Assembly: GCA_023259115.1 (NCBI GenBank)
Contig: JAHFQW010000004.1
Coordinates: 12,768-76,767 of the forward strand
Source of the DNA: an archaeon
Lineage (GTDB): Archaea > Nanobdellota > Nanobdellia > Woesearchaeales > GW2011-AR9
DNA: 64,000 nucleotides
Direction: 5' to 3'
In this document: positions 4,420 through 63,000 of the stretch, in pieces
How positions within the stretch are numbered: position 1 is the stretch's first letter
Layout of the letters: every line of letters starts with the position of its first letter
Made by a program: the position numbers and the translations under genes
Notes under the pieces: generated by a model
Told to the model about the DNA's origin: nothing
Seen by the model: only the letters and a program-made list of their open reading frames with translations
Databases searched by the model: none

Positions 4420-4510
4420 TAGTAAATTGCCCTGAAACCAAACATCCTAGGCAATTTCTATATATTGAAATTCGCAACATTTTGTTCGATTTCTTGCGAA
4501 TTTCACTATA
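4420..4510. repeat. intergenic two-hairpin repeat, copy A (family 1)
   Basis: TAGTAAATTGCC...GGCAATTT forms hairpin 1 (4424..4457). GAAATTCGCAA-cattttgttcgatttc-TTGCGAATTTC forms hairpin 2 (4467..4504). Ends CACTATA. Confidence 0.7.
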
Positions 4511-4665
4511 ATTATAGTAAACTACACAGTTACGCGTCAAACAATACCTACTGCGACAATTATATCATTCAATACATCACATGATTTCTCAACTTATAAT
4601 CTTATGCTTTATAAAGCCATCGTACTGAGACATTTTGGTCAAACTACCTTTTTCAAATTACAGTA

Positions 4666-4718
4666 ATCACTTTAAAGTAACAAAATAAACGAAACATTTA
4701 TATATAAGCCTCACTTTT
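4666..4718 (+). promoter_or_regulatory. shared promoter module, copy a (upstream motif plus BRE/TATA)
   Basis: TCACTTTAAAGTAACAAAATAAACGAAACATTTATATATAAGCCTCACTT. The TATA box TTTATATA is preceded by BRE-like CGAAA, ~80 nt upstream of the 4790 ATG. Confidence 0.6.
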
Positions 4719-4789: not shown

Positions 4790-5368
4790 ATGTCCGTAAC
4801 AGACTATCTTACCGCAAGGAGAACAGGAGAAGTCCTCAACGACACATTACTACACACCGCAGTAAGCGCATATGTCAAAGCAGAAGAAGCTCTCATCGGT
4901 GCAGACGGCTTAGTTGATAAATCAAAACTCAAAGATCCCTCTACTCGTAAAAATATAAGTTCTATTGTATATAGCTCATTAGTAGGATTCTCTCTTGCCT
5001 ATTTTGGTGCCACCACCGCAGACGAAACACGTCAAGAACAACTTGCATTTGGTTTATTTGGCATGAACACATCTGCCATTGGAAAATACGTGGATGACAA
5101 TCAAGAAAAAGCAGGTATTTTCGAATTCCTCAATTACGCACAGCGCAACACACCTTTTGGCTACTTCATGCGCCAAAACAGCAGTGATCGACCAAAAACC
5201 AAATTAGAAATGAGCGACGCAGATGAAGTAGTAACCATCACAAAAACAACAGGCGTAGTTGATCCTACAAAATTAACTCTTGATGAAATGGTAGAACTCT
5301 TAGATGAGCATGATACCCAAGGTGCCATTCGCCCTGCATTTTTGAAGGGCAAGCACTACGCCGTTTAA
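4790..5368 (+). CDS. hypothetical protein
   Basis: ORF with a GAGAGGT Shine-Dalgarno 8 nt upstream, preceded by the shared promoter module (4666..4718). Confidence 0.5.
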   Translation: MSVTDYLTARRTGEVLNDTLLHTAVSAYVKAEEALIGADGLVDKSKLKDPSTRKNISSIVYSSLVGFSLAYFGATTADETRQEQLAFGLFGMNTSAIGKYVDDNQEKAGIFEFLNYAQRNTPFGYFMRQNSSDRPKTKLEMSDADEVVTITKTTGVVDPTKLTLDEMVELLDEHDTQGAIRPAFLKGKHYAV

Positions 5369-5396
5369 GAACTAGAAAAAACCTAGAGGAAAAAAC

Positions 5397-6374
5397 ATGG
5401 CAACCCTCTATGGTATTCTTTCTGATTTTCATCGCACCTCACCAACCACTATAAACAGGGCTCTAGAATCCCTAAAAACCGCAGGAGCGCAATATCTGAT
5501 TCTCAATGGAGACTTAACCGGTGAACAGAACGCCCACAAGATTCCCCCTCCGCAGTACCTCGACTACCTTCTCAAAGCCGCTGCCGATACCAATTTAGAA
5601 ACCTACGCCCAATTTGGTAGCCACGAAGAATTTTTCTCAAGTGAAGAAGTCATCAGACAAAAATCCAGATTGTATGGCAACATCATCCACATCAGTAGCC
5701 AACAAACAATAAAAATCAACGATCATTATCTCTTATTTCTCCCCGGTTCCGATGTGAATAGCGGAGGTGAATATACTCTAGGTACCGATTTACCTTCAGG
5801 AGTGTATCTCAGAACAAACAAAGGATTACAACAAATAGAAAGTAAAGAACACTACGCCACCTGCCAACAACTCATCCAAAACAAACAAGCCCAAGGCATG
5901 CTCCACTATGAAAACACCAACGACCTAAAAGTCCACGCCACAGATCCAGAAAAAACAATTCTCATCTGCCATATACCTCCATTAAGTTCTGGCAAACTCG
6001 CCATCGATCGAGCCCAATTTGGCGTAGCCAAAGAATCATTCACATTAGATAAACGACCCATCCATGCAGGAAGTATTTTCCCCTATCCCACCGCCAGAGA
6101 TCTCATAGGATACGGCGCCCCTATCGAAATGAAAGATGAAAACGTCGGTAATAAAGAACTCTCAGACATCATGCAAACACTAGGAATCACCAAAGCCATC
6201 TGTGGCCACATCCACGAAGCATCGCAACGCGCCCACGACACCCAAAGCAACCCTATTCCCCAACACACCTACACTCCCTCCTTACTCTGGAACGCCAGCT
6301 GTATGGACAAATCACGAATAGGTCTCCTCACCGTCCAAGACAACCAAGTATCCTATCAAAATAGTACATTCTAA
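5397..6374 (+). CDS. metallophosphoesterase (calcineurin-like phosphoesterase)
   Basis: Motifs LILNGDLTG, ICHIPP and ICGHIHE (GDxx, GNHE-like and GHxH). GAGG Shine-Dalgarno upstream. Confidence 0.6.
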   Translation: MATLYGILSDFHRTSPTTINRALESLKTAGAQYLILNGDLTGEQNAHKIPPPQYLDYLLKAAADTNLETYAQFGSHEEFFSSEEVIRQKSRLYGNIIHISSQQTIKINDHYLLFLPGSDVNSGGEYTLGTDLPSGVYLRTNKGLQQIESKEHYATCQQLIQNKQAQGMLHYENTNDLKVHATDPEKTILICHIPPLSSGKLAIDRAQFGVAKESFTLDKRPIHAGSIFPYPTARDLIGYGAPIEMKDENVGNKELSDIMQTLGITKAICGHIHEASQRAHDTQSNPIPQHTYTPSLLWNASCMDKSRIGLLTVQDNQVSYQNSTF

Positions 6375-6472
6375 ATAATTTCTTAAACCTAGCATCGCTT
6401 AACCATCTCAAAAATCTATCTTCTCCCCTTCCGAAAAGCTTATAATACTCTCTTGCCCATCTCCCAAATTAG

Positions 6473-7111
6473 ATGGCAAAAAAAGAGGAAGAAGATAAAA
6501 CACCCTACATTACCAAGCACAAGAAACTCTACCAAAGTGCCACAAAACTTCTCGATACCATCTCCCACGCTCATACCGAGGCATACGTAACAGCCGTCAA
6601 CAAACACCTTCTTGATGAAAACGGGCAAGTTATTTACGACAAACTTCTCGACAACACCATTCAACAACAATTCACCAAAACCATGTCTGATTTTTATCTA
6701 GGCAAAGCACAGAAACATTTCAAAATTGAAAAAAATCTTGATGATTTAAGTAAAGACCTCTTAATGCAAGCATATGCCGGAGTAACCAGTAGTACACTAA
6801 AAGATCTCGTCACAAGATACAATAAACGTTTAACCCATCAGCAATTTGAGCAAGTGAAGGGCCAAATCCAACAACGCATCTCCCAACAACTCTATGGTGC
6901 AGCGGGTTCCCATCTTGAAACCTCAAACATTCCCGACATTGTCAAACACGTAGGCCTAGAAGCAAAAGTCAACAGCGATAAATTAGATATCGAAGAAGCG
7001 CGCCAACTCTTGCAAGTCTTCCATGAAGAAGGTAGTATTACCGATAATACTCTACGACAAATTCTCCCATCCTATAAAATAGGTAGCAAGAAAAAAGAAG
7101 AAAGAAAATAA
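6473..7111 (+). CDS. hypothetical protein
   Basis: 212-aa ORF with no recognisable motif. Confidence 0.4.
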   Translation: MAKKEEEDKTPYITKHKKLYQSATKLLDTISHAHTEAYVTAVNKHLLDENGQVIYDKLLDNTIQQQFTKTMSDFYLGKAQKHFKIEKNLDDLSKDLLMQAYAGVTSSTLKDLVTRYNKRLTHQQFEQVKGQIQQRISQQLYGAAGSHLETSNIPDIVKHVGLEAKVNSDKLDIEEARQLLQVFHEEGSITDNTLRQILPSYKIGSKKKEERK

Positions 7112-7476: not shown

Positions 7477-7524
7477 TATAGAGGACTTTGAATAACCCAT
7501 ATACTCCTCAAAATTCAAAGTCCT
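7477..7524. mobile_element. related short palindromic element (variant core), immediately adjacent to the previous one
   Basis: TAGAGGACTTTGAAT ... ATTCAAAGTCCT forms a 12-bp perfect inverted repeat. A second copy lies at 62678..62726. Confidence 0.55.
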
Positions 7525-7575
7525 TCTTAGAGGGGTTTGACAAGTTTTATAGGGTTAATCAAACCCCTCTATATC
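7525..7575. mobile_element. short (~50 bp) internally deleted MITE derivative
   Basis: TAGAGGGGTTTGA...TCAAACCCCTCTA is a perfect 13-bp inverted repeat flanking CAAGTTTTATAGGGTTAA, the same internal ends as the full-length element. Confidence 0.65.
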
Positions 7576-9523: not shown

Positions 9524-9625
9524 AGTCGTCTCCCTCCCGCCAAGGTATAATTTTTTTTGTTTTCATATAATTTATTTTTATTTCTTGTTTGTTTCATGTT
9601 TGGTATCTCTGGTGTTGTTATTCTA

Positions 9626-9716
9626 TAGTAAATTGCCATAGAAATCGAACATTCTAGGCAATTTCTATATCTGAAATTCGCAACATTTTGTTCGATTTCT
9701 TGCGAATTTCACTATA
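9626..9716. repeat. intergenic two-hairpin repeat, copy B (family 1)
   Basis: Same termini and an identical 47-nt right half. The hairpin-1 stem AAATTGCC/GGCAATTT is conserved with a different loop. Confidence 0.7.
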
Positions 9717-9848
9717 TTTATTCTGCTTATTCCATTTGTTTCATTTCTCATAAAAACAGATAAGCATCAGAACTATATAAAACAAAACACCGCAATATTA
9801 GTAAAAAAACACAATATTTATATAATAAACCATCTTTTTTACCATAAC

Positions 9849-10862
9849 ATGCGCGTCCTAGCCCAAAAAAGTCCTAAATTATCCCTTGACATGAAAGATT
9901 GGCGTATCTTAAAAGAGCTCATTTCCAACGTCCGCCAACCTCTATCGCAAATTGCTCAAAAAACCCTGCTCAGTCGTCAATCTGTGGAATATCGTATTAA
10001 TCAACTCTATGAAAATCAATTAATCATCGGCTCACGCACCATCATTCACACTAAAAAAATCGGCTACAAATCATACCACATCTTCATCGAAGTGCACACA
10101 CCCAAAGACGAACAGCTCCTCATCACCCGCTCATTAAAAGCACAATATGTCAACGCCATCATCGTCTATAGCGGAAAATATAATTTAGAAATCTCCCTCA
10201 TGGCCCAAACAGAAACAGAATTTCTCACATTATATCATGAGCTTACATCAAACATCAACATTCGTAACGACGCCACATTAATCTTGCTTGACACCCTGCG
10301 TAGCGAAGTCCTCCCCCAAAACTACTTCCCTAAACTCAAAGAAACAAATAAATTAATCCAAGAAACCAAAACCACAACAAAATTAAAACCCGAAAAACCA
10401 CTTGACCACTTTGACACCACTCTTCTCTTTGAACTATCCAAAAACGCCACCACCACTAACATCGCCCTCGCCCATCAGCTTAAAAGCTCCAAAGACACCA
10501 TTGCCCAACACATCAAATCACTTGAACAACGACGCTACATCGTGCAATACCGTCCCGTCATTAACTACGCCGTACTTGACCTCTCCATCAACTCCGTCTT
10601 AATCAAAATCAACCCCAACCCCAAAAGCACAGAACAATTTGAACAATTCCTCAAAACCCACGGATCCATCTTATGGGCCACCAAAACATTTGGTCATTTT
10701 GACTACTTAGTCTACATCATCACCAAAAACCTCGACGAATTCCACGACGTCATCAACACCATCAAAGAGCAATTCCAAAACCTCATCAAAACATATGAAA
10801 TTTTATTCGCATTTAAAGAGATGAAATACGACTTCATGGCCGAATCCATTGTAAAGAAGTAA
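9849..10862 (+). CDS. lrp: Lrp/AsnC-family transcriptional regulator with two tandem HTH modules
   Basis: Two Lrp-type winged-HTH segments: DWRILKELISNVRQPLSQIAQKTLLSRQSVEYRINQL and DTTLLFELSKNATTTNIALAHQLKSSKDTIAQHIKSLE. A TATA box (AATATTTATATAA) lies ~28 nt upstream of the ATG. Confidence 0.7.
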   Translation: MRVLAQKSPKLSLDMKDWRILKELISNVRQPLSQIAQKTLLSRQSVEYRINQLYENQLIIGSRTIIHTKKIGYKSYHIFIEVHTPKDEQLLITRSLKAQYVNAIIVYSGKYNLEISLMAQTETEFLTLYHELTSNINIRNDATLILLDTLRSEVLPQNYFPKLKETNKLIQETKTTTKLKPEKPLDHFDTTLLFELSKNATTTNIALAHQLKSSKDTIAQHIKSLEQRRYIVQYRPVINYAVLDLSINSVLIKINPNPKSTEQFEQFLKTHGSILWATKTFGHFDYLVYIITKNLDEFHDVINTIKEQFQNLIKTYEILFAFKEMKYDFMAESIVKK

Positions 10863-12542: not shown

Positions 12543-12578
12543 TCTTATATCACCAATAATCTTTCATAATTTATCTTT

Positions 12579-12613
12579 AACATTTTGTTCGATTTCTTGC
12601 GAATATCACTATA
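12579..12613. repeat. partial copy of family 1 (right half only)
   Basis: AACATTTTGTTCGATTTCTTGCGAATATCACTATA, between the tandem paralogues. Confidence 0.55.
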
Positions 12614-12621
12614 CATTCCTA

Positions 12622-13426: not shown

Positions 13427-14065
13427 ATGGTAAAATCACTATTAAGATCAATTCTACAAAAACTAACCGCTAATCCCTTTAGTCGCAAAAGCCATGTCAA
13501 ACTCGGCTTATACGGTCCCCCAAATGGCGGAAAATCAACATTAGCCAATCGCATCTGCACCGACTGGTTAGGCGAAGAAATGTCCTCCGTCTCTCATATC
13601 GCTCATGAAACTCGCGAAATCGTCATCAAAGAACAAGTCACCATCAAAAACAAACGTGGCAAAGAATTAACCTTCTCACTCGTTGACACCCCCGGAATCG
13701 CCACCAAAATTGACTACGAAGAATTCTTACGCAAAGGCCTCAACAAAGTCGAAGCAAAAAAACGCGCCAAAGAAGCAACAAAAGGCGTCATCGACTCCAT
13801 CAAATGGCTTGACAACATGGACTCCGTTGTCGTCGTCTTAGACGCCACAATCGACCCTTACTCCCAAGTTAACATCACAATTATTGGCAACCTGCAAGCA
13901 AGAAACATCCCTGTTATCATCGCCGCCAATAAAGTCGATCTCAGAAAAGCCAACACCGACCTCATCAACGCCGCCTTCCCGCAATACCCCGTCATTGGTA
14001 TTTCCGCAAAATATGGCAAAAACGTTGAAGACTTTTATGAACAAATCTTCAAAGTCGTAAAGTAA
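13427..14065 (+). CDS. small P-loop GTPase
   Basis: G1 GPPNGGKST, G3 DTPG, G4 NKVD and G5 SAK. Confidence 0.75.
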   Translation: MVKSLLRSILQKLTANPFSRKSHVKLGLYGPPNGGKSTLANRICTDWLGEEMSSVSHIAHETREIVIKEQVTIKNKRGKELTFSLVDTPGIATKIDYEEFLRKGLNKVEAKKRAKEATKGVIDSIKWLDNMDSVVVVLDATIDPYSQVNITIIGNLQARNIPVIIAANKVDLRKANTDLINAAFPQYPVIGISAKYGKNVEDFYEQIFKVVK

Positions 14066-14199
14066 AAATCACCCGTCGCAAAATAAGAAAGATATAAATA
14101 CCATTAAAAAAACAAATACTCTCAAAAACAACATCTATTAGTAGCAAAAAACAATTAGTAACAAAAACAGATAATAAAAAAAGAGGCAAAACGTATCAG

Positions 14200-14610
14200 A
14201 TGGTTACATTTCAATTCATACCCTATCAAGACATTGATACACTCACCTCCGCCAAACGTATCAACAAACTTCTTAATATTGTCAAAGACAACCGCATTGT
14301 CATCATGGAAGGTCGCCTAACTAAACAAGAAGAAGCCGACTTAATCGAAATCACCATGGAAGAAATTGGTCCAAAATTCAAAGGCATTGAACTCAGCGTC
14401 ATCTACCCCGACAAAAACACCCAAGACGTCGGACAAAAACTCAAAAACACCTTTGCCAGCATTCTCTTAGGCGACCGTCTTGGCTTAACCATAATTGGCC
14501 CAGCATCCATTGTCAAAAAGATTGAAAAAAATCCCGATAAAATCGAATTATTCACCAAAGAACTCTCCGCCAACATCGGCCGCTTCACCAAAAAAGCCAA
14601 GTATGGTTAA
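14200..14610 (+). CDS. conserved archaeal hypothetical protein (DUF2073-like, by recollection)
   Basis: Small ORF between a GTPase and a Zn-ribbon protein. This gene order is, as I recall, conserved in archaea. Confidence 0.4.
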   Translation: MVTFQFIPYQDIDTLTSAKRINKLLNIVKDNRIVIMEGRLTKQEEADLIEITMEEIGPKFKGIELSVIYPDKNTQDVGQKLKNTFASILLGDRLGLTIIGPASIVKKIEKNPDKIELFTKELSANIGRFTKKAKYG

Positions 14611-14755
14611 TTTGAACCATCTGTATAGTAAATGTGTGAAATAATCGAATAGTAACCCATTTACTTACTAGTAATAGTAAACAAGCATTCCAAAATTATT
14701 CACCATTACTATATAAACCAACTAAATTTATATAGTACTTCACCAACCACACACC

Positions 14756-15136
14756 ATGCCCCACCAATGCGTTCGTTGCAACAACTTCTATGAAGATGGC
14801 TCTCAAGAAATTCTAAAAGGTTGTCCTTGTGGCGCAAAATTATTCTTCTACATCAAAAAACAACAACTAGACAAATCCACCAAAGAATTCATCACCAATT
14901 TCACTGACGAAGAAAAACAGCAAATTGAACACGACATCAAAGAAATCCTCCACGTCAAAGAAGAACTCGATAATCCCGTTGTCCTTGATCTAGAATCCAT
15001 CCGCGTTCTCCAGCCCGGAAAATATGAACTCGACCTCGTCCACCTATTCAAAAAAGACCCACTAATCATCAAATTAGACGAAGGAAAATATATGATTGAT
15101 CTGCCTCAGGCATTTAAAAAAGAAGAAAAGAAATGA
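14756..15136 (+). CDS. Zn-ribbon protein
   Basis: N-terminal CxxC...CPC pattern (HQCVRCNNFYEDGSQEILKGCPCG). Confidence 0.5.
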   Translation: MPHQCVRCNNFYEDGSQEILKGCPCGAKLFFYIKKQQLDKSTKEFITNFTDEEKQQIEHDIKEILHVKEELDNPVVLDLESIRVLQPGKYELDLVHLFKKDPLIIKLDEGKYMIDLPQAFKKEEKK

Positions 15137-22938: not shown

Positions 22939-23070
22939 AGAGGAGCTTCACCTATAAAAATCACTTGCCTATTTGAACACTTGAAACGATTTTTAACCTT
23001 GAAAATGGTTTTTTGCATTTTCATAAAATTGGATATAGTTATTCAACCACTTTATAATATCAAAAGAAGA
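22939..23070. mobile_element. second full-length but degenerate copy of the same MITE-like element
   Basis: Cargo 22965..23035 is ~90% identical to 62899..62970. The left TIR is degenerate (AGAGGAGCTTCAC) and the right end is eroded. Confidence 0.55.
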
Positions 23071-24484: not shown

Positions 24485-24529
24485 TACTAAAAAGTAACAA
24501 AATAAACCAAAGATTTAAATATAAGTGAC
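24485..24529 (+). promoter_or_regulatory. shared promoter module, copy b
   Basis: ACTAAAAAGTAACAAAATAAACCAAAGATTTAAATATAAGTGACT, followed by the leader AAAAACAAACAGAGAAAAACAAAA-ATG (24594). Confidence 0.55.
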
Positions 24530-24645
24530 TAATTTAAAGAATAATCAGAAAAAAATCATCTTAATTATTAAAAACAAACAGAGAAAAACAAAAATGACAC
24601 AACTACCCCCCCTCATTAGAAATTCTTGTAGCCTCAGATGTACAT

Positions 24646-24969
24646 TTGCTCTTGTTAGGTAGAAGTGATATTAAGACGCTTAAAGTTGGTTTTGGTAAAA
24701 TTGGAGAAGATGGAATAGAATGTTATCACATTGGACCTGTTCAAGGAAAATTAGATTTTGAGTATTCCGCCGGTAAAACTTCAGATAATTTTTCATTAGT
24801 CCAAATGATGACATTCGGTAGATTAGGATTTACAATACTATCTCTTAAGACGGGGGATAGATACGCAATTCATCAGAATACAGAATCATTACCCCAAAAT
24901 ATTTCTTACCAACAAGTTCCCACATTAGATTATATGACTAGACGCTATGAATTAACTCAAGGAAAATAA
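24646..24969 (+). CDS. hypothetical protein
   Basis: 107-aa ORF downstream of a shared promoter/leader copy. The leader's ATG (24594) is in a different frame; see findings. Confidence 0.3.
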   Translation: MLLLGRSDIKTLKVGFGKIGEDGIECYHIGPVQGKLDFEYSAGKTSDNFSLVQMMTFGRLGFTILSLKTGDRYAIHQNTESLPQNISYQQVPTLDYMTRRYELTQGK

Positions 24970-24998: not shown

Positions 24999-28295
<3,297 letters not shown>

Positions 28296-28366
28296 TTATC
28301 GTCGATAAAGAACTATTATTTAGAGAAGTTTCCAGTATATAAATCTATCGGTATTCGGTGATAAAA

Positions 28367-28415
28367 ACTACTAAATAGTAATTACATTATAAGAAGATTT
28401 ATAAAGATATGGCAC
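28367..28415 (+). promoter_or_regulatory. diverged copy d of the shared promoter module
   Basis: ACTACTAAATAGTAATTACATTATAAGAAGATTTATAAAGATA, then the same leader as copy b upstream of the 28491 ATG. Confidence 0.4.
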
Positions 28416-28490
28416 ATTTGAAAAAAAAGAGATACAAAATATAAAACGATTTTTGGAGAAATAAATAAAAACAAACAGAGGAAAACAAAA

Positions 28491-28760
28491 ATGCCCATCT
28501 CCCCACGTAATCTACCCCAGACAGACTATAATTTAGATGAAAAAGTGAGACAACTAGAAGCTCAAATTGATGCAAAACTAAGTGAGAGAAAACTAGAGCC
28601 AGGTGTTCTTCGATTATTTGATCTGCCCCCTTCTTATGATTCTCAACAACTCATTGAGATAGTCATAGCAGATTATCGTGCACAAGGCTGGGAAGTCACC
28701 TATCATGAAGGAAGCGCGACAAATCCTGAATCCGCTCTAGGATTTAAATACCAATTATAG
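28491..28760 (+). CDS. hypothetical protein (first gene of a three-gene operon)
   Basis: Leader AAAAACAAACAGAGGAAAACAAAA-ATG is shared with 24570..24596. A diverged copy of the shared promoter module lies upstream. Confidence 0.45.
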   Translation: MPISPRNLPQTDYNLDEKVRQLEAQIDAKLSERKLEPGVLRLFDLPPSYDSQQLIEIVIADYRAQGWEVTYHEGSATNPESALGFKYQL

Positions 28761-28763
28761 AAC

Positions 28764-29723
28764 TTGAGAAATACTATGTCTTTAAGCAATTGGGTAACCA
28801 TGGCTTTTGACACCCATGGAAAACCATGTGATGGTTCTATCTCTTCTCAGAACGGAACTAGTGTAGAAATATACAAAAACTTCTTACAAATAGGTTTTCC
28901 AAAATATTCAAAAACAGAAGAAGCAACACCCCCATGCGAACCAACCTACGCTCAGATGTACAAAGGACATATAGAGATAGGGAGTATAACCATCCACGCC
29001 TCCCGCTATCAACAACAGGATGCTATTTTTACCTTCGTCAATGACCAGCATGATATGGACAATAGAAAAATCATGTGCGGCATTGGTTGTTCAGAAACAC
29101 TAAATAGTTTTGAATGGCTCAAAAAGTACCATGCACAGGAATACGCCAAAATACCACAAAAATGTCTTCAAGAAAACAACTGGTCAATCACCCAAAATCC
29201 TCCCAAAATCATCATCGGAAAAGAACCAGGTACAACCAAATGTATTAAAGATAATAGCTTTGACCAACTAAAATATACAAAACTACATTTTACTCAATTC
29301 GATTTAAGCGTAAATGCACCTCATCAATCCATTGTTCTAGACGAGTTTGAGATACTATTAAACTGTTCTCTCCCATCGCACGATATAAGTGTAGGAATTG
29401 AACCAGACCTCTTTGAAGCCTTCAAACAGTGGCTCGTAACATTAGATGAAAAAGAAGACCTCAACATTGGTAAGGAATACATTGAAAAACTCAAATACCA
29501 AGACGCCATTCGGTTTAACCAAGGAGACGCTTTTTTTGCAGAACACTATGGCACACCCATTCCCGCTCAAAAAGCCACTTTAGAAACAGATACCCCCTAT
29601 ACCCTACAGAGCAACAACCCATCACCACTCCTCCTAACAGAAGAAAACATCACCTCTGCTCAACAAAAATTAATTAAAATATTGAAACTCAGAAAAACAC
29701 AACTAACATCACACCACAAATGA
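28764..29723 (+). CDS. hypothetical Cys-containing protein
   Basis: 319-aa ORF 3 nt downstream of the previous gene. Confidence 0.45.
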   Translation: MRNTMSLSNWVTMAFDTHGKPCDGSISSQNGTSVEIYKNFLQIGFPKYSKTEEATPPCEPTYAQMYKGHIEIGSITIHASRYQQQDAIFTFVNDQHDMDNRKIMCGIGCSETLNSFEWLKKYHAQEYAKIPQKCLQENNWSITQNPPKIIIGKEPGTTKCIKDNSFDQLKYTKLHFTQFDLSVNAPHQSIVLDEFEILLNCSLPSHDISVGIEPDLFEAFKQWLVTLDEKEDLNIGKEYIEKLKYQDAIRFNQGDAFFAEHYGTPIPAQKATLETDTPYTLQSNNPSPLLLTEENITSAQQKLIKILKLRKTQLTSHHK

Positions 29724-30628
29724 AATATGATACCAAAAATAAAATGAAACTTTCCCATATCGCAAAATCTCTTCTCCTCACAACTCTACTCAGTACCCCC
29801 TCCCTTGCCACAACTGAAACAGAACTATATCAAGAGGCTCCTCCACTCATCAAAAAAATTGTACAACACGATATAGAGGGCAGAATAGCTGTTCTGGGAT
29901 TCAATATTACTGTGAGCTGTCTCAAAGGAGGCATCACTGCACTCCTCCGACAGGAATCATTTTGGAAAAATTGCAGCAAAGCCAGTATCGGAGGCATAAT
30001 TACATTTACCGGTGAAGAAATCGCCACCCACAACAAATATCCTTTTGTTGGTCTTGCCGGAAAACTCATTCATGACACCGGCATTTCTATCTCTGATAAT
30101 ATCATGCGCGGAGAAGAATATTTCTCGCAATACCAAACTGATTTTGGACCTATCAACTTCACATTTAGAGGAAGCTATACCCCCACTATCACCTATACTC
30201 TAACGCCTCTCTACGCCATAACCCGAAACATTATCCAACATCATTCCTTTGATCTAAAAAACTCCCTCTACAACCTCACCCCTATATTCCAAACAAACGA
30301 CGCACCAAAAATGCTTCAAACCTCGCCAGGAGAAACCATGGCCTCAACCATCGGAAACGTAACACAGTATAATCCCACCATCACAACAGAAGATACACCC
30401 CTTTATCTCTCCCATGAGAATAATCATGCCCTCTTTTGGAGTAAATTACGCTTCACGAATAATATCGGAAATAAACTTGAATTTCTAGGAGAAATCGGAA
30501 AACACTGGGATTACCAGCAAGACCTCAGTAAAGCGATCTTTAACCTGCCCGGAATATTTATGAATGACACCAATCGTGCCATTTTATCCATCCCTGAACT
30601 AGAAGCATATTCCATGCAGCGGCCTTGA
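29720..30628 (+). CDS. secreted hypothetical protein
   Basis: Signal peptide MKLSHIAKSLLLTTLLSTPSLA. ATGA overlap with the upstream gene indicates translational coupling. Confidence 0.5.
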   Translation: MKYDTKNKMKLSHIAKSLLLTTLLSTPSLATTETELYQEAPPLIKKIVQHDIEGRIAVLGFNITVSCLKGGITALLRQESFWKNCSKASIGGIITFTGEEIATHNKYPFVGLAGKLIHDTGISISDNIMRGEEYFSQYQTDFGPINFTFRGSYTPTITYTLTPLYAITRNIIQHHSFDLKNSLYNLTPIFQTNDAPKMLQTSPGETMASTIGNVTQYNPTITTEDTPLYLSHENNHALFWSKLRFTNNIGNKLEFLGEIGKHWDYQQDLSKAIFNLPGIFMNDTNRAILSIPELEAYSMQRP

Positions 30629-32475: not shown

Positions 32476-32571
32476 ATTCTACTTAGAGAATGGTTTTTAT
32501 TTAAGTTATTGTAGTATTATTTTTAACGACAATAGAAAAGTTTAAATAGAAAATGTGCTTTAGGTAATAGA

Positions 32572-33306
32572 ATGGAGAAGATAGAAGCACTAAAACAATT
32601 TGGACTAACTGAAAAAGAAATTAAAGTATTTTTAGCTAATTTAGAGCTAGGACAGGCAACAGTTAATGAAATAGCAAAGAAGTCTAATACGTTTAGAACT
32701 TATTCTTATGATATCTTAAAATCGTTGATGGAAAAAGGATTAGTAATATATTTCATTAAATCAGGAGTTAAATATTTTGAAACAGTTAAACCTGAAAAAT
32801 TGATTGATATTTTACATGAAAGAGAAGATCAAATTAAAGCAATTTTACCTGAATTAACATTGTTAAGAGCAGAAACAACAGAGAAGCCAAAAGTAGAATT
32901 CTATGAAGGAAAAGAAGGAATAAAGACAATCCATGAGGATATTATTAAAACGAAACCAAAAGAAGTTTTGGTATATGGAAACACAGAGAAACATTATGAA
33001 GTTATGCAGTGGTATTTTCCTCGTTATATAAAAGAAAGAGTCAAGAATAATATTAACGCTAGAGTTATTACAGAAAAGACGAAATTTACAAAAGAAAGAA
33101 TAGGGGGCACTAATAGAAAAGAACTTAGAAAAACAAGATTTTTTCCAAAGGGATTTATATTTCCAACTTTGAAGTATATTTATGGTAATAAAGTAGCAAT
33201 GATTTCTTTAGGTAAAAATATTGTAGGTATAATTACAGAGAATAAAGATGTCGCACAAACAGAAGCAATGACATTTGAACTCTTATGGAAAAATGCACAG
33301 CAGTAA
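32572..33306 (+). CDS. TrmB-family transcriptional regulator
   Basis: N-terminal winged HTH LTEKEIKVFLANLELGQATVNEIAKKSNTFRTYSYDILKSLMEKGLV typical of TrmB. Confidence 0.65.
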   Translation: MEKIEALKQFGLTEKEIKVFLANLELGQATVNEIAKKSNTFRTYSYDILKSLMEKGLVIYFIKSGVKYFETVKPEKLIDILHEREDQIKAILPELTLLRAETTEKPKVEFYEGKEGIKTIHEDIIKTKPKEVLVYGNTEKHYEVMQWYFPRYIKERVKNNINARVITEKTKFTKERIGGTNRKELRKTRFFPKGFIFPTLKYIYGNKVAMISLGKNIVGIITENKDVAQTEAMTFELLWKNAQQ

Positions 33307-33430
33307 GAAAGAACGCCATCATCATTAGCCCAAACTCAATTAGACATAACTATTATTATTGTTCTAATAGTTGACTTTTCCCGTAATTGTGTAATAAAAC
33401 ATATGGTCAAAAGTAGAAAAGAGTTATTTG

Positions 33431-33480
33431 TCACTAAAAAGTAACAAAATAAACGAAACATTTATATATAAGCCTCACTT
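33431..33480 (+). promoter_or_regulatory. shared promoter module, copy c (identical to copy a over 43 nt)
   Basis: TCACTAAAAAGTAACAAAATAAACGAAACATTTATATATAAGCCTCACTT, ending 12 nt before the methyltransferase ATG. Confidence 0.6.
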
Positions 33481-33491
33481 TACATCTAAAA

Positions 33492-34109
33492 ATGACATAC
33501 GCACTAACCGTTTTAACCGACACCGCAGAAATACAAAGACGTGGAAAACAAATTGATCCAATAGGATATAGCACTATCGCCCAAATATTTCACGCCAATC
33601 TATTGGGATTAGAAGAACAAACCAACGCTCGCGTACTTGAAATCGGCGGAGCAAAATATGAAAACCTCGCTCTATATTTTCAAAAAAGAGGAGCACAATA
33701 TCATAACGTAACGCTCGATCGAGAATGTCAAAATATGCCAAATACCACCATAGACAGCTACACTAAATACTCTCCTTGCAAACCTTTTGATTTAATCCTA
33801 TCCAACGGTGTCTTTGAACAATATGCATTAGATCGTAGCCTTAGCATGGATCGTTTAGAATATCAGAACTGGATGGCAGGGATCAAATACAGAACCCCCC
33901 AATATAATCTGCAAAAACTCCAAAAACTCTACCAACTCACAAAACCGCAAGGAAGAATTATCATCAACACTATTGCCGACCCCTGTATTTTTTCAAGCGA
34001 CGAAATACGCACCGCCGGATTTCACATCGCATATCGAGAAATCAAAAACATATATAATCCAGATTCCTCATGCAGCGAAGGCGAACTACTCATCCTCCAA
34101 AAACCATAA
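33492..34109 (+). CDS. class I SAM-dependent methyltransferase
   Basis: Motif I RVLEIGGAKYENLALYF, motif DLILSNGVFE and LTKPQGRIIINT. Shared promoter module ends 12 nt upstream, so the transcript is probably leaderless. Confidence 0.6.
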   Translation: MTYALTVLTDTAEIQRRGKQIDPIGYSTIAQIFHANLLGLEEQTNARVLEIGGAKYENLALYFQKRGAQYHNVTLDRECQNMPNTTIDSYTKYSPCKPFDLILSNGVFEQYALDRSLSMDRLEYQNWMAGIKYRTPQYNLQKLQKLYQLTKPQGRIIINTIADPCIFSSDEIRTAGFHIAYREIKNIYNPDSSCSEGELLILQKP

Positions 34110-34126
34110 ACACACCACCACCAAAA

Positions 34127-34597
34127 ATGAACACCTTCCAACAATGCCTGGACCAAAAAAAAGTACAATATAGTGTCAGCGGCTCTTCATTTTATCTGCC
34201 TGCAGAAGTCAATTTAGAACAAATTCTCCAAACAATCAATGGCCGATACGAAAGTACAAGTGAATTTGCCGTAGCAGAAAAAAATACCATGGATGTATAC
34301 CGCATTACCAACCCGATTGAAACAACTGATCATGGTCTCAAAACCTCAGAGATTCAAGTTATAAACTACCTAGAAAGAGGCCGTAACCAAAGTCTTATTG
34401 ATGAAAAAGTAGGAACAGACCTAGTTGTAAAAACAGAACTAAAAATCCACGCGGGCTATGGAGTACACAGCACATTGGGAGAAAATATAGCTCTCACCAT
34501 TATGGAAGAACTTCTAAAGCAAAATATACCCGCCACCTACATCACAACCATCGATTTAGTCAGAGGAAGAATCACTGCGTATCACAAGAAACCATAA
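34127..34597 (+). CDS. hypothetical protein, tandem duplicate 1
   Basis: MNTFQQCLDQKKVQYSVSGS... ~75% identical to the next ORF. Start set to the internal Met that matches the paralogue start. Confidence 0.55.
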   Translation: MNTFQQCLDQKKVQYSVSGSSFYLPAEVNLEQILQTINGRYESTSEFAVAEKNTMDVYRITNPIETTDHGLKTSEIQVINYLERGRNQSLIDEKVGTDLVVKTELKIHAGYGVHSTLGENIALTIMEELLKQNIPATYITTIDLVRGRITAYHKKP

Positions 34598-34614
34598 ACA
34601 CACAACCACCAAAA

Positions 34615-35076
34615 ATGAACACCTTCCAACAATGCCTGGACCAAAAAAAAGTACAATATAGTGTCAGCGGCTCTTTCTTTTATTTGCCTGCAGAAGTCAA
34701 TTTAGAACAAATTCTCCAAACAATCAATGCTCAATACGAAAGGACAACTACAGAGAGTAACCGAACCATAAACGTATATCATGTTACCAACCCTATTGAA
34801 ACAACTGATCCTGGTCTAAAAACCTCACAGATTGCAATTATAAACTACCTAGAGAGAGGCCGTAACCAAAGTCTCATTGATCAAACAGTAGGAACAGACC
34901 TAGTTGTAAAAACAGAACTACAAATCCACGCGGGCTATGGAGAACACACTACATTGGGAGAAAATATCGCTCTCACCATTATGGAAGAACTTCTAGAGCA
35001 AAATATATCCGCTGCCTATATCACATCCATTGATTTAATGTTAGGAAGAATCACTGCGTATCACAAGAAAGAATAA
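34615..35076 (+). CDS. hypothetical protein, tandem duplicate 2
   Basis: Near-identical N-terminus and an identical ribosome-binding region (ACCACCAAAAATG) to the upstream paralogue. Confidence 0.55.
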   Translation: MNTFQQCLDQKKVQYSVSGSFFYLPAEVNLEQILQTINAQYERTTTESNRTINVYHVTNPIETTDPGLKTSQIAIINYLERGRNQSLIDQTVGTDLVVKTELQIHAGYGEHTTLGENIALTIMEELLEQNISAAYITSIDLMLGRITAYHKKE

Positions 35077-47986: not shown

Positions 47987-48490
47987 AACACTGACAGCAT
48001 ATCCCCTATCGACGAAAATCCTATGAAAAAGATAACTCGATGTAGAATAGCGTGGCCATGTTTGAACGTAAAAACGGGGGTTTACTTATAAAGCTTTCGC
48101 TCAAACATTCAAAATACATATACTGCATTATAGTAAATCCCCCCAGCGTTCAAACAAAATCATCAAATCTATCGAACATCAACCAAACAAAATTTAAAAA
48201 AGAGGAAGAGATGAAATCATCATCTTCCTCCCTGAGTCCCCCCTCCCAGAATCGAATTTCCCAAACAATACCAAATTTTTTTATTAAATTTTGTTAAAGT
48301 TTACCGGGGATCTCTCGGTCTCAGCTGACTCTTAATCATCACAGTCATTGACATATCATAAGAGTTTCTACAGCCGAGCGTTCTAGCCGCTAAACTAAGG
48401 GGGGATACTCGATAAAAACAAGAAATGATTTATAAAACTTTGTATAGAGTACTTTAAATAATTCATTATTTTATCAAAATTGAAAGTACT

Positions 48491-48542
48491 TCTTAGAGGG
48501 GTTTGAAGAATTTTAGATGGTTAATCAAACCCATTTATAGAG
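48491..48542. mobile_element. short MITE derivative with an eroded right terminal inverted repeat
   Basis: TAGAGGGGTTTGA-AGAATTTTAGATGGTTAA-TCAAACCCATTTATA. Confidence 0.5.
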
Positions 48543-48588: not shown

Positions 48589-49575
48589 TTATTTCTTATC
48601 CTCTAAAAACGCACTCAACGCCGCCGCTCCCGACGGAACCATACTCTGCCCATACTGACTCAAAAAATCAGATATCTCAGACATTCTATGAAAAGAAAGA
48701 TTACGATGTTCAAATTTACCAGGAGCTTTCTCCCTCCAACGTTGCTCTAACTCTGATTGCGAAGCATAAATCGGAATACCGCAAATCACTTCGGGCAACC
48801 GTGACGGAATTTGTCGTATAATACCATAAAATAATGGTTCACCCATCTGTGTTGCATCCAAACCCATCTCCTCACGTAATTCCACTTTTAAATGACGTGC
48901 AATATCAATATCACGGCCATCTTTAGCCACATCAATAACCCCGCCAATCACGTGATGTACATTAGGATAAATCACCACCTTATCCGAACGCATACCAATA
49001 GGCACATAGATACTGGATTCATCTCCCAACACATTATAGCCATATAACACAGAACACACCGCCAACGCATTCGCAAAATAAAAATTAGGATCCGCACGAT
49101 CTTGCATACCACAATCCATGAGCTTTGCTCGAAATTCCGGCTCACGAATTGCCCTCTCATTTGTCCCAGAAAAATGCATATAATCCGTAACGCTCAACGC
49201 CAAATACAACTTTTTATCCTCTAGAACTGCTCTTGACAAACGATACTTCTCATTTACCCCACCTACTTGTTTCAACATACGTCCAATCTTAGATTCATCA
49301 CCCAACGCAATAGCTGAACTAAATTCTCCACTTCTCGCTATAAACATACGCTGTTGTACTGTATCCCAATACTGAAATATCCCTCGTGTAATCTCCGCCC
49401 GTTCCAGTGGAAAACTCAAGGGTTCTCCTTGCGTCACCACAACTTCTAACTCAGAAAAAGAAATAGGTGCAGCTGGTTTTACAATATATTCCCATGTCTG
49501 TTCTTCAACCATAGAAACTACTTTAAAGTGATGATATATAAATCTTTCCCTCATAACTCTGCAGAAGAATCTCAT
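48589..49575 (-). CDS. hypothetical protein with a degenerate Nudix-like segment
   Basis: IGGVIDVAKDGRDIDIARHLKVELREEMGL loosely resembles the Nudix box (REx2EExGu). Confidence 0.3.
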   Translation of the reverse strand: MRFFCRVMRERFIYHHFKVVSMVEEQTWEYIVKPAAPISFSELEVVVTQGEPLSFPLERAEITRGIFQYWDTVQQRMFIARSGEFSSAIALGDESKIGRMLKQVGGVNEKYRLSRAVLEDKKLYLALSVTDYMHFSGTNERAIREPEFRAKLMDCGMQDRADPNFYFANALAVCSVLYGYNVLGDESSIYVPIGMRSDKVVIYPNVHHVIGGVIDVAKDGRDIDIARHLKVELREEMGLDATQMGEPLFYGIIRQIPSRLPEVICGIPIYASQSELEQRWREKAPGKFEHRNLSFHRMSEISDFLSQYGQSMVPSGAAALSAFLEDKK

Positions 49576-62677: not shown

Positions 62678-62726
62678 ATAGAGGACTTTGAATAACCCAT
62701 ATATTCATCAATATTCAAAGTCTACC
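62678..62726. mobile_element. short palindromic element of variant type 1
   Basis: TAGAGGACTTTGAATAACCCATATATTCATCAATATTCAAAGTCTACC is near-identical to 7479..7524. Confidence 0.55.
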
Positions 62727-62877: not shown

Positions 62878-63000
62878 CTTCTTAGAGGAGTTTGACAAGT
62901 AAAAATCACTTGCCTATTTGAACACTTGAGGTGATTTTTACTCTTGAAAATGGTTTTTGCATTTTCATTGAGTTTTATAGGGTTAATCAAACTCCTCTAT
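62878..63000. mobile_element. full-length MITE-like element (~123 bp) with 13-bp terminal inverted repeats and a structured internal cargo
   Basis: The TIRs TAGAGGAGTTTGA (62883..62895) and TCAAACTCCTCTA (62987..62999) are a perfect inverted repeat. The cargo 62899..62970 contains the AAAAATCAC...GTGATTTTT hairpin. Confidence 0.7.

Follow-up and report, generated by a model that had tools for sequence, protein, structure and literature searches.

Several unrelated transcription units in the window (the whole 64,000-nt stretch of archaeal DNA analyzed here) begin behind nearly the same upstream sequence. The question raised by this locus is what that repeated sequence is, and why it stands in front of genes that have so little in common. 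Our preferred answer, to which we assign a probability of about 0.6, is that the repeat is a family of archaeal promoters all carrying the same operator. Judged from the letters of the DNA, the modules probably represent a reused, operator-bearing promoter family and a candidate regulon. A shared regulator is the best reading because the units behind the modules are unrelated genes, and in this respect an earlier interpretation made from the same DNA (the sequence-only reading) holds. What we observed directly is how the modules are built, that they are distributed non-randomly, that they recur in other genomes and that they lie in insertions.

Four copies of the module (a to d) lie on the forward strand, three of them strong (a, b and c) and one diverged (d), and each is located upstream of, and points toward, the gene that had been named for it. 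A 34-nt core, AAGTAACAAAATAAACSAAASATTTAWATATAAG, has exactly three matches in the window, all on the forward strand (4675, 24492 and 33439), while no match was obtained in 100 shuffles. Copies a and c are identical over 44 nt (4674-4717 and 33438-33481), not over 43 nt as first described, and copy a starts with ACTTTAAAG rather than ACTAAAAAG. Of the 44 positions compared with copy a, copy b shares 37 and copy d no more than 25. Scored with a PWM derived from five copies, a, b and c reached 62-66 bits and d 6 bits, and everything else stayed below 0. Because the PWM separates its members from all other sequence, the family is discrete; the idea that the module is simply the general promoter consensus was rejected, since the scan returned just four members. 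A search of 317 kb of Woesearchaeota DNA with nhmmer revealed no further members.

The members share one architecture, in which a 12-bp palindrome, (C/T)ACT-N4-AGT(A/G), often extended to nYACT-N4-AGTAR, is followed by an A/T-rich 10-nt spacer, a purine-rich BRE (GAAA) and a TATA box (TTTAWATA). The palindromes read CACT-TTAA-AGTA (a), TACT-AAAA-AGTA (b), CACT-AAAA-AGTA (c) and TACT-AAAT-AGTA (d), and in all four the left-arm ACT starts exactly 28 nt before the TATA box. Module a (4668..4717) consists of the palindrome CACTTTAAAGTA (4668-4679), an A-rich spacer (4680-4689), the BRE CGAAACA (4690-4696), the TATA box TTTATATA (4697-4704) and a conserved initiator region, GCCTCACTTT, that runs to 4717; a leader of about 65 nt then precedes the ATG at 4790. 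Module b (24485..24521) has the palindrome TACTAAAAAGTA (24485-24496), the spacer, the BRE CCAAAGA and the TATA box TTTAAATA (24514-24521). In module c (33432..33481) the palindrome CACTAAAAAGTA (33432-33443) is followed by a BRE (33454-33460) and a TATA box (33461-33468), and its mRNA is probably leaderless since the ATG at 33492 lies at +31 from the TATA start. Module d (28369..28405) contains the palindrome TACTAAATAGTA (28369-28380), a diverged spacer and, behind the BRE AAGAAGA, the TATA box TTTATAAA (28398-28405); the palindrome is shared with the divergent gyrB promoter, whose TATA box is found at 28343 on the reverse strand. Although the 10-nt spacer of copy d is ATTACATTAT and that of the other copies ACAAAATAAA, the palindrome and TATA box of d are kept in the exact 28-nt register, so that d is a true member by architecture.

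The 3' part of the module had been described as a BRE and TATA promoter, and the sequence supports this description in all four copies; the other predicted promoters of the window have the same BRE/TATA consensus. Archaeal TATA boxes are centered at about -26/-27 relative to the transcription start (PMC4158304). The ATG lies at +30 to +32 from the TATA start in module c, at a promoter near 49.5 kb and at related loci (L013, L029, L055, L063 and L080_2), and the same spacing is found at the window promoters of the Lrp, TrmB and OapC genes. Taken together, these distances fit leaderless mRNAs, which would place the center of the palindrome near -54. From these sequence features we predict with high confidence that the modules are functional BRE/TATA promoters. 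As for the 5' part, AAGTAACAAAATAAAC had been proposed as the operator. An operator-like element is indeed present, but its likely core is the palindrome YACT-N4-AGTR, which overlaps just the start of AAGTAACAAAATAAAC; the A-rich remainder varies in the members that were selected by no search pattern.

Rather than being scattered over many non-promoter sites, YACT-N4-AGTR is confined to intergenic DNA in the window. Six instances were found there against 0.53 expected (0 of 1000 shuffles reached 6), although intergenic DNA makes up 11.9% of the window, and none was found in coding DNA against 3.6 expected (27 of 1000 shuffles reached 0). Four of the six stand in the identical register to a TATA box. 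The fifth, TCACTTTAAAGTAG (49531-49518, reverse strand; feature 49518..49542), lies between the TATA box (TTTATATA, 49542-49535) and the start codon (ATG at 49512) of an orphan 307-aa gene whose mRNA is probably leaderless; by analogy with characterized regulators, this is a repressor-type position. The sixth, TTACTTACTAGTAA (14662..14673, forward strand), falls outside the 28-nt register, about 63 nt upstream of the OapC TATA box (14727). It is located inside a second repeated intergenic module (14620-14720 in the window, 6500-6570 in L078), in which the palindrome is accompanied by several phased TAGTAA half-sites, and the palindrome recurs about 470 nt to the left of the window (L078 6555-6566). 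For the outer copy of this second module the next annotated gene is about 460 nt away, a distance that suggests a transcript missing from the annotation. Near the fifth palindrome, a 148-nt stretch on the reverse strand (49770-49623) has ends that pair as a perfect 7-bp acceptor-like stem (GCGGTAG ... CTACCGC) and a tRNA-like 5' part. ARAGORN with its intron option and Rfam called nothing in this stretch, but it may be an atypical intron-containing tRNA, a kind known from DPANN archaea.

The genes behind the modules are a heterogeneous set. Unit a (4790..7111) encodes an orphan 192-aa protein, a metallophosphoesterase and an orphan 212-aa protein, and unit d (28491..30628) three orphan proteins, the last with a signal peptide. 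Unit b (24594..24969) is a small orphan gene of atypical composition (GC skew +0.11) in which a C7 run (24607-24613) breaks the reading frame: read from the ATG, the frame ends at 24660, and the long ORF goes on in a different one. The sequence is the same in an independent assembly (L067), and the gene could be a pseudogene, a phase-variable gene or a case of programmed frameshifting. Unit c (33492..35076) comprises a SAM-methyltransferase-like gene and two tandemly duplicated small orphan genes (34070-35076; 89-95% DNA identity over about 460 nt), the first of which overlaps the 3' end of the methyltransferase ORF. All four units are on the forward strand. Searches of the target genes against Pfam, PHROGs, PADLOC and PDB sequences yielded only the metallophosphoesterase, a weak SAM-methyltransferase match and a VWA-like match. 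The suggestion that the products form a common functional module was therefore not borne out, as they are orphan proteins without shared domains and the same promoter fronts different ORFs in relatives. Units b and d do share a second element, as had been claimed: the leader AAAAACAAACAGAGRAAAACAAAAATG occurs at 24570 and 28467, with 0 expected by chance, and the similarity extends to 31 of 34 nt. It forms part of a 5' leader and ribosome-binding segment that ends in the ATG of both units (24563..24596 and 28460..28493, forward strand). Rfam and tRNA searches of the window returned no known RNA family and no tRNA.

The module recurs in other genomes; the Woesearchaeota sequence covered by the comparison amounts to about 0.3 Mb. 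A scan of a genome collection with the pattern AGTAACAAAATAAAC-N6-TTTA gave mostly chance matches, but it also returned a relative MAG (L005, L010) and the DPANN MAGs L013 (Woesearchaeota) and L017, in which the left-arm ACT is in register though unforced by the pattern. A metagenome scan with YACT-N4-AGTAACAAAATAAAC, in which the TATA box was not forced, gave about ten loci, mostly from one marine sample series; all have GAAAG/C and then a TATA box at the same spacing, before unrelated genes. The genes downstream of modules in the other loci are, in general, as unrelated as those in the window. YACT-N4-AGTR was absent from about 20 kb around each of the other Woesearchaeota loci L071, L073, L081 and L082, with one looser ACT-N4-AGT plus TATA match in L082. 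The MAG that contains L005 and L010 (CAYSCV01) is titled 'uncultured Methanosarcinales archaeon', which is at odds with its content: L010 is syntenic with 53-59 kb of the window, with proteins 83-89% identical. The RpoA' of the window shares 78-89% identity with proteins from MAGs of Candidatus Woesearchaeota and Nanoarchaeota, which places the window in a Woesearchaeote (DPANN); the title is therefore a mislabel, and a motif spanning Methanosarcinales and DPANN was rejected.

The palindrome has N4 spacing in every one of 16 instances across loci. However, 12 of the 16 aligned instances were retrieved by patterns that force AGTAACAAAATAAAC, or YACT as well; conservation of the spacer across genomes is thus not independent evidence, and the instances selected by no pattern are more telling. 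These are window copy d, L080_1, L080_2 and a second promoter in L038, and all keep the arms and the register while the spacer varies. The second L013/L038 promoter reads AACTACT-AACT-AGTAGTT, and its TATA box departs from this register by no more than about 1 nt. These members also bear on the view that the extended conserved sequence marks a class of promoters recognized by an alternative TBP or TFB paralogue instead of a classical regulator. An identical 10-nt spacer and BRE in several genomes would fit such a class, but the drift of the spacer in exactly those members that no pattern selected makes this very unlikely.

Two cases point to conservation upstream of orthologues, the gyrB upstream region and a methyltransferase operon, both in the close relative L080. 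The L080_2 module diverges from gyrB, as module d does in the window, and its ATG lies at +30. When the gyrB upstream regions of window and L080 are aligned (A1), the arms ATTACT and AGTAGTT are invariant while two of the four bases between them differ. This is supportive rather than decisive, because the whole aligned region is about 70% identical and the arms stand only modestly above that background. The L080_2 module drives an operon with a split homologue of the window methyltransferase (42% protein identity), and the association between module and methyltransferase operon therefore recurs at a different locus. In L010 and L080_1 two divergent promoters share a single palindrome, one TATA box being at 28 nt and the other at 31 nt. 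The gyrB region has features of its own. Its presumed 5'UTR contains another palindrome, TTATCGTCGATAA (28296-28308), which is conserved in L080 (A1) and may be a separate regulatory element of gyrB. The GyrB of the window (24999-28286, reverse strand) is a 1095-aa protein with an intein carrying an HNH endonuclease domain, and the GyrB of a relative is intein-free with 669 aa; gyrase is common in Woesearchaeota (PMC9348778).

The module-bearing units sit in variable insertions between core genes, and for most copies the insertion is strain-specific. In L085 and L086, the genes for S7, the g36761 orthologue, the g35109 orthologue and Kae1 are contiguous, without the 31.9-35.1 kb block that holds the TrmB gene and unit c in the window, and no palindrome was found in 15 kb of these loci. 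In another relative (P0140 contig), Kae1 directly adjoins GyrB, which is followed by SMC; this adjacency indicates that units d and b are extra in the window. In L010, an insertion of 1.6 kb contains the module together with genes for a small secreted protein and an AbrB/MazF pair.

Multiple copies that are nearly identical and located in variable regions, and the presence of the repeat in several genomes, might also be expected of a MITE, a recombination site or a viral or plasmid sequence. We regard an origin of this kind as highly improbable. Homology between a and c ends after about 51 nt, repeat and blast searches detected neither terminal inverted repeats nor target duplications, the repeat has no Rfam match, and every copy faces a gene that lies at the distance usual for a promoter. 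Two scans of viral contigs returned only chance matches that lack the architecture, and a viral or plasmid origin was rejected.

The main rival to operator-bearing promoters is pure promoter reuse, in which a BRE/TATA promoter that is strong and constitutive, together with its A-rich upstream tract and in some cases a leader, was copied before newly acquired genes without a dedicated regulator, the palindrome being incidental or just a structural upstream element. We consider this less likely, yet it is the alternative that deserves the most attention. The phenomenon is already documented (PMC3575422), the modules are located in variable insertions, and the identity of a and c over 44 nt includes positions of no obvious function. 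In addition, the similarity among window copy a (W_a), L010 and L080_1 continues into the initiator region and covers most of the 5'UTR (alignment A2), so that a common promoter and 5'UTR stand before unrelated ORFs. It is possible that both this similarity and the a/c identity reflect recent copying rather than selection. However, pure reuse does not account well for the diverged members, in which the spacer drifts but both the arms of the palindrome and its 28-nt register are retained. It also fits poorly with the enrichment of the palindrome in intergenic DNA and its lack in coding DNA, or with its presence at 49.5 kb, where it overlaps the start site, and at 14662, where it belongs to a different repeat family. 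Near-identity beyond what an operator needs, as in the 44 nt of a and c and in a leader common to relatives, is itself explained by reuse of the promoter, and reuse of an operator-bearing promoter remains our preferred reading.

Which regulator would bind the palindrome? A TrmB-type factor is the best guess at the family level. The half-sites TACT-N4-AGTA (b and d) and CACT-N4-AGTA (a and c) are of TrmB type, with TACT/AGTA as in known TrmB sites, while the N4 spacing is new and matches no characterized TrmB operator (N3, N5, N7-8). A TrmB-family gene (32572..33306, forward strand; PF01978) lies about 130 nt upstream of module c, and it had been put forward as the regulator of the four units. 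Its family fits, and several facts favor the gene as well. The best relative of its protein among solved structures is T. litoralis TrmB (3QPH, E = 0.003), with the Y-D recognition pair aligned, and homologues 80-87% identical show that this protein family is highly conserved in Woesearchaeota, the carriers of the module. Nevertheless, the role of this particular protein is doubtful. In composition the gene stands apart, with a GC content of 0.28 and a GC skew of +0.27, where nearly every other gene has a skew between -0.2 and -0.55. The TrmB block (32497-33350) looks like a recent horizontal transfer, since gene and promoter are 85% DNA-identical to those of a GC-poor Woesearchaeote (L071), compared with 80% for rpoA' within the window's own clade. 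Because L085 and L086 are without the insertion that bears it, its adjacency to module c appears to be recent and coincidental. Only two close homologues of the unit c methyltransferase exist, and the orthologue that is 92% identical has a gene other than TrmB upstream.

The promoter of the TrmB gene points the same way. Between two divergent TATA boxes it contains a different palindrome, TTGTAGT-N10-ACGACAA (32509-32532, forward strand), which is conserved at TrmB promoters in L071, L073 and, twice, L075, and at no other promoter. This palindrome is absent from the modules, and YACT-N4-AGTR is absent from the TrmB promoter. Autoregulation is common in the TrmB family, and TTGTAGT-N10-ACGACAA is probably the autoregulatory operator of TrmB, being the more natural site for that role. 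No YACT-N4-AGTR was found within 10 kb of the closest TrmB orthologues, while a distant TrmB paralogue in L075 has the palindrome about 100 nt upstream. The recent horizontal arrival of the gene and the different palindrome in its own promoter thus leave the adjacent TrmB without specific support.

The sequence-only reading had also nominated the double-HTH Lrp/AsnC protein (9849..10862), which would bind the A-rich 5' part of the module. Apart from being the only other recognizable regulator among the window ORFs scanned, this protein has little to recommend it, and we consider it a most improbable candidate. Nothing connects Lrp to the module palindrome, and a different strong palindromic repeat, TGAAATTCGCAA-N16-TTGCGAATTTCA, present ahead of the Lrp gene and in two further intergenic locations, is the likelier Lrp-related element. 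The repeat family to which it belongs (837-887, 4434-4515, 9620-9721 and 12569-12618) has palindrome arms of 12 bp, and a TATAGTAAATTGCC...GGCAATTTCTATA element stands in front of the palindrome. The Lrp gene lies about 130 nt downstream of one copy, and another copy shares its intergenic region with module a.

The window contains two more repeated intergenic elements, one at 7477-7573, 48443-48539 and 62678-62722, made of two adjacent hairpins flanked by TATAGAG...CTCTATA, and one at 22939-23046 and 62884-62990; neither has an Rfam match. Strand asymmetry is extreme: G makes up 13% and C 26% of the forward strand. Nearly all genes, on either strand, have a GC skew of -0.2 to -0.55, and protein composition consequently differs by strand. 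The sign of the skew is constant across the window despite the origin-associated OapA/B/C genes at 13427..15136. Relatives of the same clade (L010, L080, L085 and L086) have an absolute skew of 0.31-0.36, and other Woesearchaeota loci 0.04-0.2.

On the reading of operator-bearing promoters, a dimeric winged-helix regulator, most likely of the TrmB family, would bind the palindrome. Bound at about -54 in modules a to d, it might aid the recruitment of TBP and TFB and so activate transcription, by analogy with TrmBL1, Tgr and VNG1451C. At the 49.5-kb promoter, where the palindrome lies between the TATA box and the start codon, the same factor would, by the same analogy, act as a repressor. The cassette may have been duplicated or captured before lineage-specific accessory genes, with exchange among Woesearchaeota. 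A bolder and rather speculative extension is that Woesearchaeota possess a portable 'plug-in' platform, that is, a horizontally exchanged operator and promoter, sometimes with its 5'UTR, behind which accessory ORFs are swapped. If this were true, new genes would come at once under one common regulator, in a manner that loosely recalls a cassette system, and genome-reduced DPANN archaea would have a dedicated route for the domestication of foreign genes.

To our knowledge, almost nothing is known about the regulation of transcription in DPANN archaea, a group whose members are uncultured or difficult to grow. A cis-element of fixed geometry in several Woesearchaeota offers a concrete, testable handle, through which a first regulon and the protein that controls it could be identified. 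That the cassette is tied to strain-variable insertions bears on how newly acquired genes are expressed in genome-reduced symbionts. Even if promoter reuse alone were at work, the locus would still illustrate clearly, in an archaeon, a process known chiefly from bacteria.

Palindromic operators beside BRE/TATA elements and the reuse of promoters are both already known. Operators of the TrmB family have been described in Thermococcales and Halobacterium: TACT-N3-AGTA for TrmB of P. furiosus and T. litoralis, the TGM of TrmBL1 and Tgr (TATCAC-N5-GTGATA), TACT-N7-8-GAGTA for VNG1451C, and also ATAATACT repeats (PMC4158304). In these systems a site ahead of BRE/TATA mediates activation, and one at the start site repression (PMC4158304). 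The module palindrome resembles these operators as an inverted repeat with TACT/AGTA (or CACT/AGTG) half-sites beside BRE/TATA, and in occurring both upstream of BRE/TATA (activator type) and between TATA and start site (repressor type). It differs from them in its N4 spacing, in a TATA register fixed at 28 nt and in its DPANN host; moreover, its targets are orphan accessory genes and not genes of sugar metabolism, and the only TrmB gene of the window has a different conserved palindrome at its own promoter. Ptr2-type upstream activation in Methanocaldococcus jannaschii (as cited in PMC4158304) is similar in position only, in that the regulator site lies directly upstream of BRE/TATA, where it would aid TBP recruitment; Ptr2 is an Lrp-family protein with different sites.

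The closest parallel to the copying of the module is the reuse of promoters, or putative mobile promoters, before non-homologous genes in bacteria (Nijveen, Matus-Garcia and van Passel 2012, PMC3575422). In both cases, highly similar upstream regions precede non-homologous genes, within a genome and across taxa, with no recognizable mobile element; here, the 44-nt identity of a and c and the 37 of 44 positions shared by a and b are found before non-homologous genes. Unlike the bacterial promoters, the modules are archaeal BRE/TATA promoters that carry an operator at a fixed register, sometimes together with a 5'UTR, and they are tied to strain-variable insertions. What is new here is the N4 geometry with its fixed 28-nt register, its occurrence in DPANN archaea and its coupling to variable insertions.
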